Shown here: positions 425 through 60,884 of the stretch, one piece after another | Layout of the letters: each line of letters begins with the position of its first letter | How positions within the stretch are numbered: the stretch's first letter is position 1 | NCBI GenBank assembly: GCA_013239625.1 | Contig: MU053304.1 | Coordinates: 1,426,001-1,490,000 of the forward strand | Origin: Lama guanicoe | Taxonomy: Eukaryota | Length of the DNA stretch: 64,000 nucleotides | Direction of reading: 5' to 3' | Notes under the pieces: generated by a model | Databases searched by the model: none | Seen by the model: the letters and a program-made list of their open reading frames with translations, nothing else | Told to the model about the DNA's origin: nothing | Program-made: the position numbers and the translations under genes

Positions 425-442
425 ACTTTCACTTTCCTTTTC
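425..442 (-). promoter_or_regulatory. ISRE/IRF-binding element in the SP110 promoter
   Basis: ACTTTCACTTTCCTTTTC reads GAAAAGGAAAGTGAAAGT on the minus strand (tandem GAAANNGAAA). It lies ~130 nt upstream of the first in-frame ATG, and SP110 is a known interferon-stimulated gene. Confidence 0.75.
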
Positions 443-574: not shown

Positions 575-35144
<34,570 letters not shown>

Positions 35145-38219: not shown

Positions 38220-38358
38220 GGGAGGGACGGTATAGCCCAGTGGTAGAGTGTATGCCTAGCGTGCATGAGATCCCGGGTTCAATCCCCAGTGCCTCCATTA
38301 AAATAAATTAATAAACCTAATTGCCTCCCCCCCAAAACAAACAAAAATAAAACCAAAA
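38220..38358 (+). mobile_element. tRNA-derived SINE (Vic-1-like)
   Basis: A/B boxes, A-rich tail, flanking AACATATT duplication. Confidence 0.85.
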
Positions 38359-39707: not shown

Positions 39708-42700
39708 TCTTATCAAAGCTCTGGGTTGCTCTATTATGGGGAGAAAAACAAAATAAAACACTGAAGAGCCATTTTTTCTTTCAGGTTGAAAGTTTCAACC
39801 ACTGTCAGTTTGGTTGCCATGACAACCAAGACCCCCATCCCTGGAACCATCTCTCCCTTTGGCTGCCTTTTGTTGCTGCACTGCTTCCTACAAGAGCGGA
39901 GTTTGGTTTATTCTGCTTAGCTCAGCTGGTCCTTAGCTTCCCCCTCCATCCTGTCCTTCTGAGCTGCAGGGTCAGGCCCACCCTTTTTTGGTCTCCCACT
40001 GAACAGGCCCACTGAGTTACAGCATCAACTTCCTGAAACCAGTGTCAGCGACGCCCCTACAGACAATGCCGATTGTGTCTCCCCAGGGACCCCTTCTAAT
40101 CCTGTGCCCAGGCTATTTCTCCCTTCCTGGTCCAGCTTGGTCCCTTCCTCATTGGCTAGAGCTGCTGAGAGCCTGGGTCAACTCAGGACTGCCTCCACCC
40201 AAGTTGTGACACAGGAGGTTATAAATGACTCTCAAGTGGTTCCCTGAAGCTGGGCAGAGCTAAAGCTGCAAAATGGGATAAAGAAAAGCTTTCTATTGAG
40301 AACTTATCAGGAGGGATTATATATACATATAGCCACCCATCTAGCTGATACCAGAAATTCAACCTTGGAAAATCATTCTTGGGAGCTGGGAAGTCACGGT
40401 CTCCTGGTCGCACACACCTGCCCTCGGGAGAGGTGGGCTTAGCTGACAATCAGCGTCTGGGCTGGGCCTTTCTCAGATGCTTTCCAAGCTTCTACAGAGC
40501 CAGGCCCTGCCAAGCAAGCTCACCTTCCGCAGGTGGCTGTGGAGTCTGCCTCTGCTGGCCTGGTCAGTCCTGCTGGGCACCTTGGCCTCTCTTCTTCCCT
40601 CCCCACACCCTGAGATCCCTGACTGCTTCTCTTCCCTCCTAAAGGTGCTTCCACTCCGTCCCGTGGAATCCCTCTCCGCTTGGAACTGGGTATGTGAGCT
40701 ACAGGATTCCCAGTTCTCCCATCTGTCATAGTCCCTGAAAAACAGAAAAGCACAGACTCTATTTCCTTTACCACTGGGGCTGGGGGTGAAACTTGAGATA
40801 ATGAAATCCAAGAAGCCATTGACTTACTCCCTTTTCCCCTGGTCTTGAGACCACTTCATCTCCCGAGCCATCTAGAAAAGGGCTCAGTGAGGCCTGCCCA
40901 GCCTGGACTCCTTGGGCTGTGTGCCAACAGGCATCCAGCTTGGACAAGAACAGAGGTAGGACGCATTGGCACTGGGGACATTGTGACCCACGAGCTGTCG
41001 CTAGCATCTGATTATTCACAGAGTTTGAGCAGACCCTGTGGGAACTCTCTCCTCCATCATCCAGAAGTGACCCTTCTGGAGGCCAATTTGCCAGAAAGCA
41101 TCATGGAGCCTCAGACAAGAACTCAGCAGTAAGGACAATGACCAGACCAGGGCCAGAGGATCAGAGGAAGGGGCAGCTGCATGTCCAGAATGTCACCTGA
41201 TACAGGACTCATCTGTCCCGCCGCCCTCGGGCAGTACCTGTTTAATGTGGAGTGAAGACTTGACACACCGAATGCTGTAGCATCTAGGGGTGGGGTAAGG
41301 CAGAAACATCCTTATTTCACAAGGGCGACGGTGAGGTTTCTAACTTCAGGCGCAATGACAGTTCCCCAGGCTCGGCAGCCTGGGCAGAGGCAGGCATCCA
41401 GGCGCTGTGGCTGCAGCGTTCAGATCCAGGGCTGCAACAGTGCCCAGCTGTCAAGGCGCAGGCTGTCTGGATTTCTGCGGCAAAGGGACAATGCTGCCCA
41501 ACCACAGAGGCCAGTGTCAACCCCCTCCAGAGACGCTAGGTAGTAAAACTCCCACGGGAACTAGGAACAGGGAGAAGGAACGAGTGAGGGCTTTTCAGGG
41601 GGCAAAGGTGCTCTCAAAGGCTCTGTAATTGACCATTCAGTAACAGGAGAGCCAACCAAGGACGTGTGCCAGATCCCCCCCAGATTAGGCGAGCTAAGAA
41701 TGACCAGCAGGACAGTCAGGGTTAGGCGTACACTTGTACCGCTGACATTCAAGTGAGGATTTCCTTACCATGACAAGAGGTCCCTTCTGTTCTTTGCCGC
41801 AAGCTTCCAACCTCACAGCTAGCAAAATGTAACGACGGAGATGTGGTAAACAACATGGGCTGGAAAGAGTGCCAGGCAGTCTAGCTTTTCATTTAAACAG
41901 GCTGGGGCCTGGTGGTAGGCCCACCTCGGAGATGACCAACGGCATCCTCAGACCTAAACTCTAGCATCTCCCATTTGCAAGAATGCCCCTGGAAATCTGC
42001 TCTCCAGGACACTGACGGGTGAGAGTCTGGTGAGGAAGCCACACCCGTAGAGGGGTCTTTGGTCCCAATAAAGTAAATTTGACCAGATGGTGCTTGGAGA
42101 GGAGTTCCCTGAGATGGCTGTACATCTGACAACTTCCCATGGAAAGCATCCATGGACCTCTGCTCCAGAGTCACCAAGGAGCTTGTGAAGATGCAGATTC
42201 CGAGGTCCCCAGCCCTGAAGGAGAATCTCTACTTTTTTTCCTTTTTGAATCTTTACAATTGATGCCCAGGAAGTGGTGTTTTTAACAAGTTTTCTAAATT
42301 CTTTTATTTTTTTTGCCCCAATTATGTTTGGCATCCATTGCCCTAAGATAAGACTGGTCTTTATCTTTCAAGAGAGGAACAAATCTAACTGATGTATGGG
42401 TGATGCTGGCAGCAGTGGAGCCTGCAACTCCACAGCGAGAGCTGGCCCAGCCATGTGTGTGTGTGGTTGGGTTGATTTTGTGGTTTTTTTGTTTAATTTG
42501 AATGTTTTTTAGTTTAGTTAAGTATAATCGGTTCTCAGAAACAGTAATAAGAAAAGAATGAAAGCATTGGCAGAAGGAAAAACTAAACCAGGAAGAGAAA
42601 ACAGCTGTGAGTGAGAGGGAGGGAAAACTAAGAGAAAAGGCAGCCCAGCGGCCAGACTGGGGCCAGGAGGGAAGAGGGGCGCATGGGAGAGAGGGGGAAA

Positions 42701-43147
42701 CTCCTTCTTGAGCAGCTGTCAACAGGACTTTGGGAAACTGGGTGAGTGGATCTTTAAGATGCTTTGCTGTGTGGGGGTCAATCTCAAGAGACCTGAGATG
42801 TTTACAGTCACTCTGAAGCTTCTCTTGGATGTTGGGCTGCTGTTACAGTTGAATGGGAAATCACCCTGAGGTGGCTGCCAGGCACCCCCATTATATTTGG
42901 GCTACAGGCAGCTGTAAAAAGAGAGGAATACAGAATATTGACAAGTCCAGGGTAGAAATGCTTTGCAAGAGGGGCCCAGAGTTAAGGACCGGAGGCCCCA
43001 AGGAGGCACTGAAGCAGTGACATCTTGAAAGAAACAGTGAGAACGCCCACCATCTAGGGACCAGGTGGGGGGGGGCAAGAGGTGGCGGGTGGACTGGGGG
43101 CTGCCAATAGTTTAACCACCTGTTCCTTCTTAGTGCTTCAGTCCCCA

Positions 43148-43276
43148 GGGAGGGTACAGCTCAGTGGTGGGGTGACTGCTTAGCATGGACAAGGTCCTGG
43201 GTTCAATCACCAGTACCTCCATTAAAAATGAATAAATAAATAAACCTAATTATCTCCCACTACCAAAAAAAAAAAA
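43148..43276 (+). mobile_element. tRNA-derived SINE (Vic-1-like)
   Basis: GGGAGGGTACAGCTCAGTGG...GGTCCTGGGTTCAATC...AATAAACCTAAT...poly(A). Confidence 0.85.
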
Positions 43277-46200
43277 CTACAAAGGATCAAATTCCCACTC
43301 CCCAGGCTTTTCAGGGGGTGTGGTGGGGGTAGGGGAGAAGGCACACTGGAGAAGGTGAGGGGGAGATTGAGGAGGGGGGGAGGGGGAGTCCACTCTAGAC
43401 TTCAGCTTCTGTCCTAAATTACCTAAAGTCAACACACACCTTAACCCTGAAGAAATCATCTCCTGACACCAGCTCCTGATCCCCAGGGAGACTCATAGTT
43501 CTATTTAGCTGGCAGAGTCCTTCTCCTTAACTTTTTTCTCTCTAACCATTGAGCACGGTCTACGTGGGAGTCATTCTGGAGAATTCCTAAGCCTGGCTTG
43601 GGCTTGATTCTGCTAAAACGCCTGCCTTCAGCTCCAGAGGATAAAAGTTTTCTTTCACTGACAGATAACAGAGGGTGCCCAGCCCCAAGTGAATCATCCC
43701 AATTTCTCAGAAGGAGAGAAATGTCCTTTGATCCAACCGTGTATGCAGTGTCCCGCGCACAGCGGTGACTCAATAAAGCTCCATCATTGCTGTCCCTGCA
43801 ATAAGCCAGAGTTCCTCGCCCTTGACCTGCGTGTCCCAGGGCCTCCCTCACCCCCTGCCCGTCACTGGCCTGTGGAGCTTCCCGCTTTGGCCCAGGCACA
43901 GTGAAATGACCAGTTTCTGTCGTGCTGGCCAGAATCCACTACCTCCACAGAGGTCAGGCAGGGGGACCCCCAAAGAGAACAGTGATCACGGCCCCAGCCC
44001 TGGGGTGGACGCCTTGGGACCGAGGGGAGCCGTGAGGCTGGGATTCCTGGCGTTGGCTGCTCTTGGGTCTTTGTTTTCCTGGAGGTAGTTTTTATTGTGC
44101 AAAACCTTTTTTTTTAAGTGGAGGGCGGGGATGTTTTTCTCAGACACGTTCACAGCCAGGCATCCTGCTTACTTCCGACCCCATCCCTCCCCCAACTCCC
44201 CAGGGTGGAAATTCCTGATCTAGCCCGAGGTCCAGTCCCAGTGACATTCCAGACAAGAAGCCAGAAGCTGGAAGTCAGCTAACAGCCACAGCCCCCAGAG
44301 AGCTGGCCCGCGATCTGCTGGCTCTGCCTGTGAGCGGCGTACGTGGAGAACTGGCCACACGGCCTCACCTCACTGCAAACCACCATTGCCTGGGTCTGTA
44401 GTTGCCTCTCGGTCTCCCTGCTTCTACTCTGCCCAGCCCCCAGCCCAAAGCCCATTGCCGGCACGGCACCGCGCCAGCCTGGGCTGGTGAAACCCATCAG
44501 ATCTCACCCGCCGCAGGGTGGAAGCCCCAGGGTCCGCGCGGGGGGCCCTCCGCTCCCCTTCTCCACTTGCTGGGTTTTCTGTTCCTCACTCCTCCTCCCG
44601 CAGCCTCCTCACTGTGCCTGGAGCGCCAGGCCGTCCCTGCTCAAGGCCTTGCCACCAGCACGTCCCTGTGTCTGGAAGATTCCTCCCTCTAGAACTGCCC
44701 ATGGTTCATTCTTACTTTCCTAAGGGTCAAGTATCCCCTTTCGGGAAGGCCTACCCTGCAACCCCTCGCCTGCTCTTCTGCCTTCTCACTGGCCTGCTTT
44801 CCTTCCGCGGTGCCCCATGTATCATGTTCTAACTAACGCTCCAGTCTTTGGTTTATTGAGTTTGGTGTCTGTCTCTTGCCACTATAATGTAAGTTCCTCA
44901 AGGGCAAAACTTCTATTTTGTTTGCTGGTATTTCCCTATCGAGCTCCTAGGTGCTTCACAAACACTTGCTGAATGAAAGCCTCCGTCCCCCCAGTGAGTC
45001 TCAGCCAGCTGGCCTGCGGGGTCCACAGCTTCCCAGGGCAGCACCCCGCCTCCCTGTGCCTCCCACCGCCATTAATTAGTGGCGGTCTGACTCCCTGCCC
45101 CAGGCCTCGCTCCCGTGTGGTAAGCCCGGCTTCTGCCCTGGCTCTGCCCCTGCGCACCCTGTCTGTACCCAGTTCTCTCTCTGCCCAGGGCCTTGCTTCA
45201 CTCTGATGACGGATGCCTCCCTCCCACCAGGACGTCCCGCTGAGCTCTGTCCCCCTGGGAGAGAGAGCCCTGTGCCACTTCCCCCTGTCTGCGCTGCTCA
45301 CTGGAGCTCCGCCTGAGAGGTATTCCCACTGTTAGAGAAAACCAGAGGCTGGCAGTAGCTAATGCAGTAAAAACAGAACTATTGCAACAGGGGGGAAGGG
45401 ACCGCTGTACAGAACTGAGCTCCATTCTGAACATAACAAGGATGAGTGGGGATTTCCAGCCAAGGAGCAGGTGGAGGTGGGGGGAGGTCAGTGGATGAAA
45501 TACGTCTAACAGGAAAAATCAAGGGTAAAAGTAGGGGAAGAGAGCGGATTCTGGTTAAACAGACTGAACGGGATTCTTGCTGAAGGCAAGCAGAGTGATC
45601 AGGTACCAAAAATGGTGGGTGAGGAATTTGGCCAGATGTCAAGGGTGATCACAAATCAAGGGTGACCAGGTATCATGGACGGGAAATTCTCTCTAAACTG
45701 ACTTAGCCAGATTCTTACTAAAACTGGCCCATGTGGGCCCAACAAGGATGGATAGCTGAGAAGAAGCCTAGCTGAGAAGAAGGCTTAGAGGAGCATGAGT
45801 AAGTTTTGGTCAAGGGGAGAGCCTTCACCCTCACCTTGGAAAGCAGAACCCTTGGCTGGTACTGCCAGCACCAACCCTACTTGGCCTGGCCCACCCCTAC
45901 TGCCCTGCCCTGATTAAGAGACAGGTCCAGGTCAAGTCAGGCCCCGAAAGTCATGCAGGCATGAGGACCTGGCTGCCACCCAGCCCTGGCTCTTCACCAC
46001 CCACAGCCTCCGGATAGCACTGAGGGTGACTGGTTGGGCAGAGCAGAACCCAGTGCTGGAAAGCCCTGCACAAAATTTCCCAGGGAGCCCCTGGGCAAGC
46101 CCAGGTGCCTCAAAAAATTCTTAATCACTGTGAGATTTGTCAGTTCTTCATGTCCCCGAAATGAAGTCCCAGGGGCCGCATCAGGTCTCCTGCCCCTGTG

Positions 46201-48023
46201 GCCACCTTCAGTTCTGGCCCCAGCTTGGAGACAATTGCCTCAGGCTGTTTTACCCATAGATTTTGAGGAAGGAGGGAGAAGCTTTAAACTCAGTAAACTT
46301 TGCAGCAACTCTCATTTTTACTTAGGAAAGAAATGGATTAGTAATTCAGGACTCCTCACCTCATCTATTGATCTGTCTCTGCCCTTTGATTCATCCTGAA
46401 GAGCCGGATGGTCTATGAGCCAAACATTAGGTCCCAGGCTCTTAATGGGTCTCTTGTGATACCAGCACCACGGAGAGAGCCAAGTCGGGGGCACGGTCTA
46501 CAAACAGGCCAATTCCTATTGTAAGGGGTGAGCCCCGTGATCTGAGTTTTAGTTTTTAGCTTATTCCTTTCCTGTCTACCAATCAGATCCCAATGCTGTC
46601 TGGGCCCCACCCCCACATCCCCTACCCTGTGTTGCATTCATCTAGAACTGACCTCCTATTTCTAGTCCTATCTTCAATTTCTGACCTTTACCCTATCAGG
46701 CCAAGGATTATTGCCCCTCCTCAATATGCCTTCTTCTTAACTATTCCCAAGGAAATGCCTACCCCACCCCAAAAGAGCAAGAAGAGGAAACTAGGGGTTA
46801 TTTTACAGCTTCTTCAAGTCTAGACCTGTAGAGGACCCCAGAGCCACGGACCAAGCCATGAATTCCAAGGCCACTGGGAATGCTGAGAGTGTGTAGAAGG
46901 TGAAGAGAGAAACAGGGTTCCATAAGCCTCTACTTCTAGGAATTTCCAGAGAAAAATTATTTTGTAAATGCCAAAAATACGATAGGACTGTCCATGAAAT
47001 CAGCTATGACAATTAGGAAACAAAAGTTGTGGCTCTGTTCCCAAAGGCCCCACCTACTAATATCATCACATCAAGCATTGATATTTCAACATATGAATTG
47101 TGTGGAGACACAAATAGCGTCAGGTCATAAAAAGGATACCTTCACCCGGTGCACTCTGTCTGTCTCCTGGATAGCTCACTCTGGTGAAGGCTGCCACCAC
47201 GTCATGAGGATATGGTCAACAGCCCTTTGCAAGGTCCACATGTGGAAAGGAACCAATTCACCAGCCCCAGCTTGGTGGCCATGTGACTGATCCTCCCTCC
47301 TTAATCAAGCCTTGAGATGTTTCCAACCCCTCCAAGTCTTCGAGTCTCCCAGCTGAGGCACTAGACAATGTAGGGCTGTGTCTTACCTGAGTCCTCCCTC
47401 ACCCCCATGTCCTCTCTGAACTCCCGATCCACAGAAACAGTGAGATAATAAGTGGTTATTGCTGTCTTAAGCCTCTAAGTTTTGGGGGCGATTTGTTATG
47501 CAACAACAGACAACCAATACACATGGCCTCACATAATCTCAAGGGGATGGGGACATCTAAGTGTACCATTGACCCAAAGATGGGAGAAACTGCTTATTGG
47601 TAAATGTCCTGATCTTACCAGGAGAACTTACCAATGAGACATTTCCAGACAAAAACCAGGATTCACATTCCTTCCTCTGGTGGGTCATAGAAGGTTATTG
47701 TCTGAAAAATCAAAGGGTTGCTCCTGTCCCAACCTACCACCAGGAATAATATCCACACTCACTGATGTGCAGGCAAGGACACACATCAGAAATTTCTACA
47801 TGCCATGGCTGAAAACCTCCAGATTTCAGAAATACAAAAATTTGAAAAGAATAAGCATCTTGGAATTAATGGAAATAGCATGTTGCTGTTTTCTCAGTCA
47901 CACTCTCTCTTATTTCTGCCTGGGTTGCTGTTATTTGCCGTTAACTAGAAGATCTAAGACGGTAGGTTTGGAGACAAAATGAGAACATGGGTAAAATGTC
48001 CTTGTATTCAAAGCAAAGCATGT

Positions 48024-53439: not shown

Positions 53440-54354
53440 TTAAACTGGCCCTCTGCTGGTCACCGTGTGACCACACCACAGTTGATAGCACATCCAATGG
53501 CATAATTTGCTTTGCAACTCTCTATTCCAGAGCCCATAGATCAGAGGGTTAAAACACTGGGCAAATGCAAAGACTCCAAAAAGCACCAGATTTAAAGCAA
53601 AGAAAAATTCCCCACACATCTTTCCCAAACCTATGAATATCAGGGTTGGTATCACATGCAGGGCCAGCTGCAGTAAGTGGATTAGCACTGTCTTCCTCGC
53701 CTTGACGTTTGATCTATTAAAATGGCCAGCCCGCTTCCCTTCTTTGTAAATCAGAGAGTAACTTATAAGAATGATAGACAGAGGAAGGAAAAGGAAAACC
53801 ATGCCGATGGCTCTGGCAGGAACGCCATTCAAGATCACCGGGCAAAGGGGTTCAGATTTTAAAACAGCCACCTGGGTGGGGTTAGTGCCTTCTATAAGGA
53901 ATAAGCAAGCATTCTTTAGTATAATAATTAGCCAAGCCCCAGCCAGAATCTTATACTTGAAAAGATCTACAAAGGACAGAGACTTCAAGGGCCAACAAAT
54001 TGCTAGGCAGGCGTTGACAGCCATCAAGGCCAGGGTGACGAGAATCCCTTCTCCAACACTTAGCTGTGCCCCAAACACCAGCCAGCACATCAGCATGGGG
54101 CTGTTGGCCAGGAGGGCCCGCATCCCTTGGAAAAGCACCCCCAGGCCGCAGTAGGAGGAGATGCACAGCAGATGGTGGCAAAGGAGGAGGTATCGGACCT
54201 TCCTCCTCAGCTTGGAATTCTGCAACACTGTGGCGATAATGATGACAGTGATGAAGGTGGCAAAGGAGAAAGTCACCAGGTATACAGAGGCCTTCACTGT
54301 GGCTTCCAGCCTCAGCCAATCTGATATGTTACAGCGCTCAGAAGACACGTTCAT
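53440..54354 (-). CDS. Orphan 7-TM rhodopsin-class receptor, olfactory-receptor-related (GPR148/Csprs-like), 304 aa
   Basis: Intact ORF with seven hydrophobic segments and N-glycosylation sequons NVS and NIS at the N-terminus. Motifs: RYLLLCH after TM1, MAVNACLAICWPL (degenerate MAxDRYxAICxPL), ISY in TM5, KARKTVLIH in TM6, NPLIYGLWNREL in TM7. A splice acceptor lies 24 nt upstream of the ATG. Confidence 0.9.
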   Translation of the reverse strand: MNVSSERCNISDWLRLEATVKASVYLVTFSFATFITVIIIATVLQNSKLRRKVRYLLLCHHLLCISSYCGLGVLFQGMRALLANSPMLMCWLVFGAQLSVGEGILVTLALMAVNACLAICWPLKSLSFVDLFKYKILAGAWLIIILKNACLFLIEGTNPTQVAVLKSEPLCPVILNGVPARAIGMVFLFLPLSIILISYSLIYKEGKRAGHFNRSNVKARKTVLIHLLQLALHVIPTLIFIGLGKMCGEFFFALNLVLFGVFAFAQCFNPLIYGLWNRELQSKLCHWMCYQLWCGHTVTSRGPV

Positions 54355-54573
54355 GATCTATAGGCAACTTGGCTTTTCCTGCAGGAGAAAAGACCAAGAA
54401 AGAATAAATCTGGGTTACATCTTCTTGTGTGGTTTTCCAACTCTCTGACCTTGTGAATAGTTTCAAGGAACAGATTGCACCTTTTTCGGCACAGAGGATG
54501 ACAACTTTAGTGCTGACAAGGATCAAAGAAACGGGAGACATTATCTGGAGTCTTCATTTCAGGGAAGAGGCAC

Positions 54574-60744: not shown

Positions 60745-60884
60745 GGGGGAGGGTACAGCTCAAGTGGTAGATAGAGCACATGCTTAGCATCCATGAGGTC
60801 CTGGGTTCAATCCCCAGTACCTCTTCTAAAAATAAATAAATAGACCTGATTACCGCCCCCCCCAAATATTTTTGAATATATATA
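60745..60884 (+). mobile_element. tRNA-derived SINE (Vic-1-like)
   Basis: Same consensus as the other copies; flanking AATAGCAG duplication. Confidence 0.85.

Follow-up and report, generated by a model that had tools for sequence, protein, structure and literature searches.

The 64,000-nucleotide (nt) stretch of Lama guanicoe contig MU053304.1 analyzed here, referred to as the window, contains most of the SP110 gene (1683-34234) on its plus strand and, on its minus strand at 53440..54354, an intact 304-codon open reading frame (ORF) encoding a seven-transmembrane (7TM) protein, referred to as the receptor. The two genes are convergent, with about 19 kb between the last recognizable SP110 coding part and the receptor stop codon. 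The receptor is very probably the single-copy camelid orthologue of mouse Csprs, a non-olfactory member of Type 2 group kappa, positioned tail-to-tail with SP110. As gene discovery the locus carries little weight, since the Csprs-type family was already known (2001-2009) and public data already include an alpaca protein 99% identical to the receptor. The gene encodes an orphan receptor that was correctly spotted in an original prediction made from the letters of the window, is mis-named in public data, and has one under-reported structural oddity in its activation core.

The coding exon and its constraint

The receptor frame measures 305 codons from stop to stop, making it the longest of the 701 window ORFs of at least 45 amino acids (aa), ahead of a 226-aa runner-up. 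In 200 first-order Markov simulations, the longest ORF per simulated window averages 178 codons (standard deviation 27, maximum 280), against 305 in the real one; the receptor ORF is real and exceeds chance length. It runs uninterrupted from ATG to TAA, bearing out the original prediction of an intact single-exon ORF of 304 aa.

Upstream of the ATG, a polypyrimidine tract leads into an AG that ends 24 nt before the start codon, and an in-frame TAG lies two codons 5' of it. Together, this putative acceptor and the TAG suggest that the coding part is one exon, probably with an intron in the 5' untranslated region (UTR); given the TAG, no exon further 5' can lengthen the protein in this species. 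Murid-like 296-codon copies of the gene, nearly identical among themselves, occur on five metagenome contigs (loci L001-L005), 74% identical to the window protein and differing from one another by 1-5 nt, a spread expected for a multi-copy house-mouse gene. All five have a pyrimidine tract and a CAG 23 nt 5' of the ATG, and none carries an in-frame stop between acceptor and ATG, the frame having been worked out by hand from the upstream sequence.

Comparison of the receptor with L001 over 289 codons yields a ratio of nonsynonymous to synonymous substitution rates (dN/dS) of 0.208 (NG86), 0.250 (LWL85), 0.338 (YN00), and 0.262 (maximum likelihood), at a dS of 0.52-0.74 and with differences at 19%, 13%, and 35% of first, second, and third codon positions, respectively. 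For this single pair, the values indicate moderately strong purifying selection on the receptor protein; none is near 1, in line with the earlier claim that the gene has been kept intact.

Seven predicted proteins (P0109, P0110, P0113, P0114, P0117, P0120, and P0123) match the receptor over codons 1 to about 52-54 only and, past codon ~52, either pass into unrelated sequence or jump to codons 266-289. Their shared breakpoint suggests that an internal donor near codon 52 recurs across species and may feed alternative, non-receptor transcripts. In the window, codons 52-53 (about 54196-54201, minus) read AAG/GT, a possible internal splice donor.

Probable Csprs orthology and family reach

A search of the animal's own 2.05-Gb genome returns one match at E <= 0.001 (100% identical) among 24 candidates scored, the next best reaching E 0.3. 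OR-like loci of the same genome (OR, olfactory receptor) match the receptor at E 1.35-3.06 only. The Pfam OR model 7tm_4 (PF13853) has no match to the receptor at E <= 1, whereas L012, an OR from this animal's genome, reaches 162.7 bits with that model. The single genome match and the weak matches to OR loci point to a singleton that is not a canonical OR. No other 7TM or OR domain is found in the window ORFs scanned with Pfam. As far as 53440, the scan covered ORFs with a minimum length of 40 aa on the plus strand and 75 aa on the minus strand; the minimum was 60 aa on the plus strand past that point and 45 aa on the minus strand past 54300, with ORFs that touch the N gap excluded. The receptor thus stands alone, outside any OR cluster, as had been proposed.

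A word-indexed search of a protein database without genomes, which displays a single representative for each 90% cluster, returned 84 matches, the best being an alpaca protein labelled "probable GPR148" that is 99% identical, differing at 2 residues. Alignment of 63 near-full-length placental cluster representatives, 69-85% identical to the receptor, gave 64 rows with the window protein included, 59 of them free of gaps over 289 residues; the named representatives come from Laurasiatheria, Euarchontoglires, Afrotheria, and Xenarthra, all four superorders. The family is small, with 74 proteins at E <= 0.001 in an exhaustive HMMER search of 1.84 billion representatives. Outside placentals, identity to the window protein is 42-43% for shark and ray proteins and 47% for an axolotl member, with relatives in sharks, rays, and amphibians spanning 39-47% overall. 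Searching with the axolotl member recovered named relatives in three salamanders, at least 12 frogs, sharks, rays, and a reedfish. Names of sauropsids and marsupials are absent from the word-indexed lists for the receptor and axolotl queries, a weak negative from a shared-word search that returns 90% cluster representatives only.

Loss in ruminants, considered on account of Bos mutus and Ovis matches covering 61% of the query, was rejected. The Bos mutus protein (P0068) is 97-98% identical to the intact, full-length P0005, P0008, and P0009, and because such intact bovid-like proteins exist, the apparent ruminant truncations are read as model chimeras. P0068 leaves the receptor after about 196-200 residues and continues into RRM sequence (Pfam RRM_1, E 7e-29); of the two Ovis models (P0069/P0083), P0069 departs near this codon into unrelated sequence. 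P0068 and P0069/P0083 are probably chimeric models, or reflect a retrocopy beside the gene, and not gene loss. Of the original description of an old, lineage-patchy receptor, the age stands, with members at 39-47% identity in sharks, rays, and amphibians, and the patchiness finds only weak support, the gene being intact in four superorders and the ruminant fragments chimeric.

Phylogenetic placement used IQ-TREE (quick search, LG+G4, Shimodaira-Hasegawa-like approximate likelihood ratio test [SH-aLRT] only) on 64 rows, rooted on two canonical ORs from the animal's own genome. Besides these and the window protein, the rows comprise 16 placental representatives, 4 sharks and rays, 2 other word-search matches, and 39 of the representatives P0086-P0155 of at least 255 aa, excluding shorter ones and the near-duplicates P0092 and P0094. 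The receptor falls in a 32-row clade (SH-aLRT 99) of 17 placental rows, P0084, axolotl, sharks, and seven rows taken as fish, within which the placental group, window protein included, is nested with a support of 100. P0084 is a misplaced long branch of uncertain placement. On this topology, the kappa clade dates at least to the shark-tetrapod ancestor. The nearest non-kappa relatives by HMMER are fish and amphibian proteins named 'odorant receptor 131-2-like', 23-31% identical (18-26% in the A2 alignment), which share the Y-x-E-G-K/R...S-N...A-R-K/R-T...H motif of intracellular loop 3 (ICL3) and TM6.

The link to Csprs is provided by chimeric proteins. In P0110 and P0120, an HSR domain (Pfam E 2e-19) is fused to the first 52 residues of the murid copy, 100% identical to cluster P0057 (377 members), to which L001-L005 are 99% identical. 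This HSR-plus-Csprs N-terminus arrangement is the published architecture of Sp100-rs, in which Sp100 exons 1-3 are fused to Csprs (2026 preprint), and ties the murid-like copies to Csprs. A hamster fragment named 'component of Sp100-rs' (P0076) is 69% identical to the receptor and 88% identical to the Phodopus orthologue. Niimura 2009 (PMC2817399) equates group kappa with Csprs, which it describes as single-copy and non-OR and for which it cites a naming in 2001; it places GPR148 in group theta1 and considers theta, kappa, and lambda genes usually single-copy and probably not olfactory receptors. Mouse Csprs is situated in the Sp100/Sp110 region, at the flank of the Sp100-rs/Sp110 repeat (2026 preprint). 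The 32-row clade, the lack of 7tm_4, and the HSR fusions agree with the original assignment to a Csprs-type, type-2 OR-related gene distinct from canonical class I/II ORs, and what that prediction stated on Csprs, Sp100-rs, and GPR148 matches Niimura 2009 (PMC2817399) and the 2026 preprint.

In comparison with mouse Csprs, the camelid gene shares a tree clade with the murid-like copies assigned to Csprs (L001-L005 and P0057, at 72-74% identity to the window protein), likewise has one coding exon whose acceptor precedes the ATG by about 24 nt, lies in the same SP110/SP100 neighborhood (mouse side: 2026 preprint), and has the same N-T/A-Y/C triplet at the DRY site, as NAC in the camelid and NTY in murids. 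It differs in being single-copy, compared with many copies plus Sp100-rs fusions in Mus musculus (Niimura 2009, PMC2817399; 2026 preprint), and in its C-terminal tail after residue 289. The in-frame stop 5' of the camelid ATG bars a translated Sp100-rs-type fusion, whereas the murid exon permits one. The camelid gene represents the single-copy, unfused form of the exon amplified by the mouse Sp100-rs/HSR selfish element, which has been described as a toxin-antidote system (2026 preprint); the ancestral state of the Sp100-rs locus can be read from non-murid orthologues like it.

Receptor core, proposed working, and alternatives

The receptor matches Pfam 7tm_1 (PF00001) with 35.4 bits (cutoff 30.5, E 1e-8) over profile positions 3-260 of 260. 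An AlphaFold2 model built from 53 diverse relatives, replacing a discarded earlier model from 25 close orthologues (predicted local distance difference test [pLDDT] 49), reaches a mean pLDDT of 87 and a predicted template modeling score of 0.85. Its helices, spanning residues 10-45, 53-80, 87-120, 122-156, 178-209, 217-243, 249-275, and 278-297, form seven transmembrane (TM) segments plus helix 8, in agreement with the seven segments originally proposed. A Foldseek search of the PDB gave at least 500 matches; all 48 matches listed are class A G-protein-coupled receptors (GPCRs), with query-normalized TM-scores of 0.60-0.71 and a top identity of 22%, reached by consOR2 and GPR84. The result is a generic class A fold, with no informative nearest receptor among the matches listed. 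Sequence searches of the PDB returned weak matches, beta-adrenoceptors first (E 5e-4 for the single protein, E 4e-7 for the family profile). On the predicted structure, the receptor is a class A (rhodopsin-like) 7TM protein.

The translation contains AICWPL, ISY, KARKTVLIH, and NPLIYGLWNREL, the four OR-type signatures quoted in the original prediction. Canonical ORs share with the receptor an intronless coding region of ~300-310 aa, N-terminal N-glycosylation sites, the disulfide cysteines at C3.25 and in extracellular loop 2 (ECL2), AICxPL after TM3, SY in TM5, and an NPxIYG-type TM7. The receptor differs from them in having no 7tm_4 match and none of the OR consensus motifs MAYDRY, GN in TM1, and LSxxD in TM2, and is instead single-copy, slowly evolving, and outside any cluster. 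The 7tm_4 model is reached by 3 of the 5 DRY/ERY-type relatives scanned, compared with none of 5 kappa-clade proteins.

The class A microswitches, which are hallmarks of the class and not a formal condition of membership, are partly present: W141, P236, and N269-P270-x-x-Y273 are found, and N1.50, D2.50, and DRY are absent. In the HMMER alignment to the beta2-adrenoceptor, the family triplet NTY aligns with DRY, Ser66 with Asp2.50, and Thr36 with Asn1.50. The camelid receptor has N114-A115-C116 at the DRY site and Thr36 at 1.50, and its TM2 is devoid of acidic residues. None of the 64 placental rows has an arginine at 3.50 or an acidic residue at positions 56-80 (TM2); their DRY-site triplets are NTY in 48, HTY in 6, NAC in 3 (the camelid included), and other variants in the remainder. 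Across the clade, Thr or Ser stands in place of Asn1.50. Arg3.50 is likewise missing from all 32 kappa-clade tree rows, 28 of which have Asn at 3.49; in contrast, it is present in 25 of the 30 tree rows of other Type 2-like clades, the DRY/ERY-bearing 'odorant receptor 131-2-like' proteins. As aligned here, loss of the DRY arginine marks the entire kappa clade. The literature searched on Csprs and the DRY motif contains no report of a clade-wide loss of Arg3.50 and the acidic TM2 residue together with a conserved ICL3.

Other core elements are retained, including the extracellular disulfide pair C90-C171, W4.50, Y5.58, P6.50, and (N/S)PxxY. Among the 64 placental rows, C90, W141, Y199, and P236 are invariant and C171 is kept in 63, with N/S-P-x-x-Y also maintained. 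The majority-residue share over 62 placental rows is high in the pre-TM1 segment (0.96), TM2 (0.93), ICL3 (0.92), and TM7 (0.92), and low in ECL2 (0.75), helix 8 (0.73), ICL1 (0.72), and the C-terminal tail (0.58). The most conserved part among placentals is the extracellular pre-TM1 segment, residues 8-24 (about 54283-54333, minus; C-N-I-S-D-W-L-R-L-E-A-T-V-K-A-S), whose V-K-A core is retained in sharks and axolotl. Such conservation is unusual for a GPCR N-terminus.

These features probably describe a working cell-surface receptor for a ligand, likely conserved, that is endogenous or pathogen-related. The conserved ICL3/TM6 segment argues for a conserved intracellular partner; ORs carry a KAFSTCxSHL segment as its counterpart. 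More tentatively, the clade-wide loss of Arg3.50, Asn1.50, and the acidic TM2 residue hints that activation and coupling may be non-canonical. In this scheme, a ligand would bind the predicted membrane receptor, a conserved intracellular partner would dock on the ICL3/TM6 face, and the activation chemistry would depart from the DRY/Na+-site mechanism.

Expression data from mouse connect Csprs to interferon (IFN). It rises 55-fold with IFN-lambda2 and 4-fold with IFN-beta in polarized gut epithelial cells (PMC5650613) and is among the IFNG- and IFNB-induced genes of macrophages (PMC2846935). A wider scenario, which we regard as improbable, would make kappa/Csprs a gnathostome-old class A lineage that dropped the canonical activation core at its origin, kept a near-invariant ICL3 and pre-TM1 segment for >400 million years (age estimated from the shark-tetrapod split), works through a non-G-protein or otherwise unconventional partner, and became functionally tied in placentals to SP100/SP110, the nuclear-body locus induced by interferon, perhaps as an interferon-regulated epithelial or myeloid sensor. 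If true, this tie to SP100/SP110 could explain the capture of the exon by the selfish Sp100-rs/HSR element of the house mouse. No functional study of the receptor appears in the literature on Sp100-rs and G-protein-coupled receptors, as judged by titles and abstract openings.

Several observations weigh against reading the locus as an orthologue of Csprs that encodes a working receptor. The missing Arg3.50, Asn1.50, and Asp2.50 could mean that the receptor no longer signals. The dN/dS estimates come from one pair, and a range of 0.21-0.34 denotes moderate constraint only. The kappa label draws on one source name (P0076), the HSR fusions, and the literature, and the tree, a quick LG+G4 search with SH-aLRT as its only support measure, includes neither a Csprs RefSeq protein nor GPR148. 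A relative about 80% identical to the receptor (P0066/P0151) has a frameshifted N-terminal third, Arg in place of Cys171, and one deleted TM5 residue, and looks like a mammalian pseudogene. With models in several species splicing codons 1-~52 to other exons, the output of the locus may be partly non-receptor. The mouse interferon signal, in turn, may stem from Sp100-rs fusion transcripts driven by the Sp100 promoter and not from Csprs itself, and the core GAAANNGAAAS of the interferon-stimulated response element (ISRE) is absent from 54.3-64 kb, the 9.6 kb upstream of the receptor.

The alternative that survives best takes the protein for an atypical 7TM molecule acting without G proteins (a scavenger, a decoy, an arrestin-biased receptor, or a constitutive scaffold), its ligand-activated G-protein switch lost at the origin of the clade and replaced by another membrane role. 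Poor coupling to G proteins is seen in class A receptors without the DRY arginine, C5aR2 and certain atypical chemokine receptors among them, a precedent that favors this alternative along with the absence of Arg3.50 from every clade and placental row, the lack of an acidic TM2 residue, and the replacement of Asn1.50 by Thr or Ser. Nevertheless, the conservation of ICL3 and of TM7 with NPxxY (0.92 each) and the invariance of Y5.58 and P6.50 (64/64) fit a working intracellular interface. Furthermore, most sister Type 2-like rows are also without Asp or Glu in the 2.50 column, yet they retain DRY. We consider an atypical molecule of this kind less likely than not.

Much less probable is a locus that matters mainly as an exon source, by donating a 5' exon, forming Sp100-rs-like fusions, or producing antisense RNA to SP110, and whose ORF is a conserved-looking relic. 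The seven models that end at codon ~52-54 are compatible with this, mouse Sp100-rs being one such fusion. A relic is difficult to reconcile, however, with 289 aligned codons that are indel-free in 59 of 64 rows, a dN/dS of 0.21-0.34 across the entire ORF, the camelid TAG that blocks N-terminal fusion, and an identity of 39-47% between sharks and mammals.

It is scarcely credible that the gene is the camelid GPR148 orthologue (theta1), as its NCBI automatic name would have it. At least 12 of the 84 matches are named 'probable' or 'putative G-protein coupled receptor 148', and the second-nearest Atlas cluster (score 0.97) is auto-named 'probable G-protein coupled receptor 148'. The automatic names in the same list nonetheless contradict one another (GPR148, odorant receptor 131-2-like, olfactory receptor 11H7-like, proteinase-activated receptor 1-like, histamine H2 receptor-like, and rhodopsin-like) and are hence arbitrary, while the sole curated-looking name is 'component of Sp100-rs'. 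GPR148 resembles the receptor in being an orphan class A protein within the OR radiation; Niimura 2009 (PMC2817399) regards both as non-OR and assigns them to different groups, theta1 (GPR148) and kappa (Csprs). In a survey of dog GPCRs, GPR148 is reported from human and as missing from dog, rat, and mouse (PMC2651185), whereas the receptor family is intact in carnivores and rodents; the two are set apart here by these descriptions. In addition, the gene adjoins SP110, as mouse Csprs does in the Sp100/Sp110 region, and the animal's own genome holds no detectable paralogue of the receptor at E < 0.3. For this family, the database label 'probable GPR148' is very probably mistaken, and its members are to be read as Csprs/kappa orthologues.

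Least credible of all is an ordinary class I/II OR outside a cluster that detects odorants in the nose: the OR-like motifs (AICWPL after TM3, SY in TM5, a KAFSTC..H-like ICL3/TM6, and NPxIYG in TM7, on the OR consensus) and the shared top identity of consOR2 among the best structural matches are outweighed by the missing 7tm_4 match, the E 1.35-3.06 of the genome's own OR-like loci (E 0.3 for the best non-self match of any kind), N-x-C/Y in place of the MAYDRY motif, single-copy, one-to-one orthologues that are the opposite of OR birth-and-death evolution (Niimura 2009, PMC2817399), and unpublished RT-PCR, cited in the same paper, detecting no kappa expression in Xenopus olfactory epithelium.

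Read as a Csprs/kappa orthologue, the receptor pairs a very conserved ICL3 with an unusual loss of the DRY arginine across its whole clade, making it a clean candidate for deorphanization and for the study of non-canonical coupling.

The SP110 neighborhood

SP110 is identified by HSR, SAND, PHD, and Bromodomain matches distributed over 1.7-34 kb of the plus strand (Table 1), confirming the convergent arrangement originally described. The ORF at 26322-26546 has 91 protein matches, whose named members are all SP110 save one 'Interferon-induced protein 75'; it is 100% identical to alpaca SP110 X2 and 94% identical to the dromedary protein. Beyond the SP110 domains and the receptor, the remaining window ORFs scanned contain no Pfam domain.

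Table 1. Positions of the receptor exon, SP110 domains, and tRNA-model matches in the window; SP110 coordinates are ORF bounds, not exact exons
Feature	Position	Strand	Evidence or content
Receptor coding sequence	53440..54354	minus	ATG-to-TAA, 304 codons, TAA at 53440-53442, single coding exon
5' UTR part of receptor coding exon	54355..54378	minus	24 nt, in-frame TAG at 54358-54360
Probable 3' splice site	54379..54400	minus	Polypyrimidine tract, then AG at 54379-54380
HSR, SP110 5' coding	1683-1970	plus	Pfam HSR (Sp100-type), E 1.1e-16
HSR, SP110 5' coding	3475-3720	plus	Pfam HSR, E 9.1e-20
SAND, SP110	25742-25975	plus	Pfam, E 4.1e-8
SAND, SP110	26322-26546	plus	Pfam, E 5.5e-19
PHD, SP110	32076-32381	plus	Pfam, E 8.5e-6
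Bromodomain, SP110	33824-34234	plus	E 1e-3, 19.4 bits, below cutoff 21.7
tRNA-model matches	4046-4118 (+), 20928-20998 (-), 38226-38297 (+), 60749-60825 (+)		34.6-38.2 bits, cutoff 29

Two overlapping ISRE-like cores, the only ones close to a gene start in the window, are located at 426-442 (minus) and precede the first SP110 HSR exon by about 1.3 kb. Their position fits an interferon-responsive SP110 promoter as a candidate; the window total for GAAANNGAAAS, 5 compared with 2.5 expected, is reached in 9 of 100 shuffles and is not above chance. A 177-N assembly gap (25006-25182) shortly precedes the SAND exons.

Between SP110 and the receptor, a GC-rich stretch extends over 40000-46500, with 0.51-0.61 GC per 500-nt bin and a peak at 44000-45500. 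It has no Pfam match on either strand and could be a CpG island, the promoter of an unannotated transcript, or a repeat. The four weak tRNA-model matches are most likely tRNA-derived short interspersed nuclear elements.

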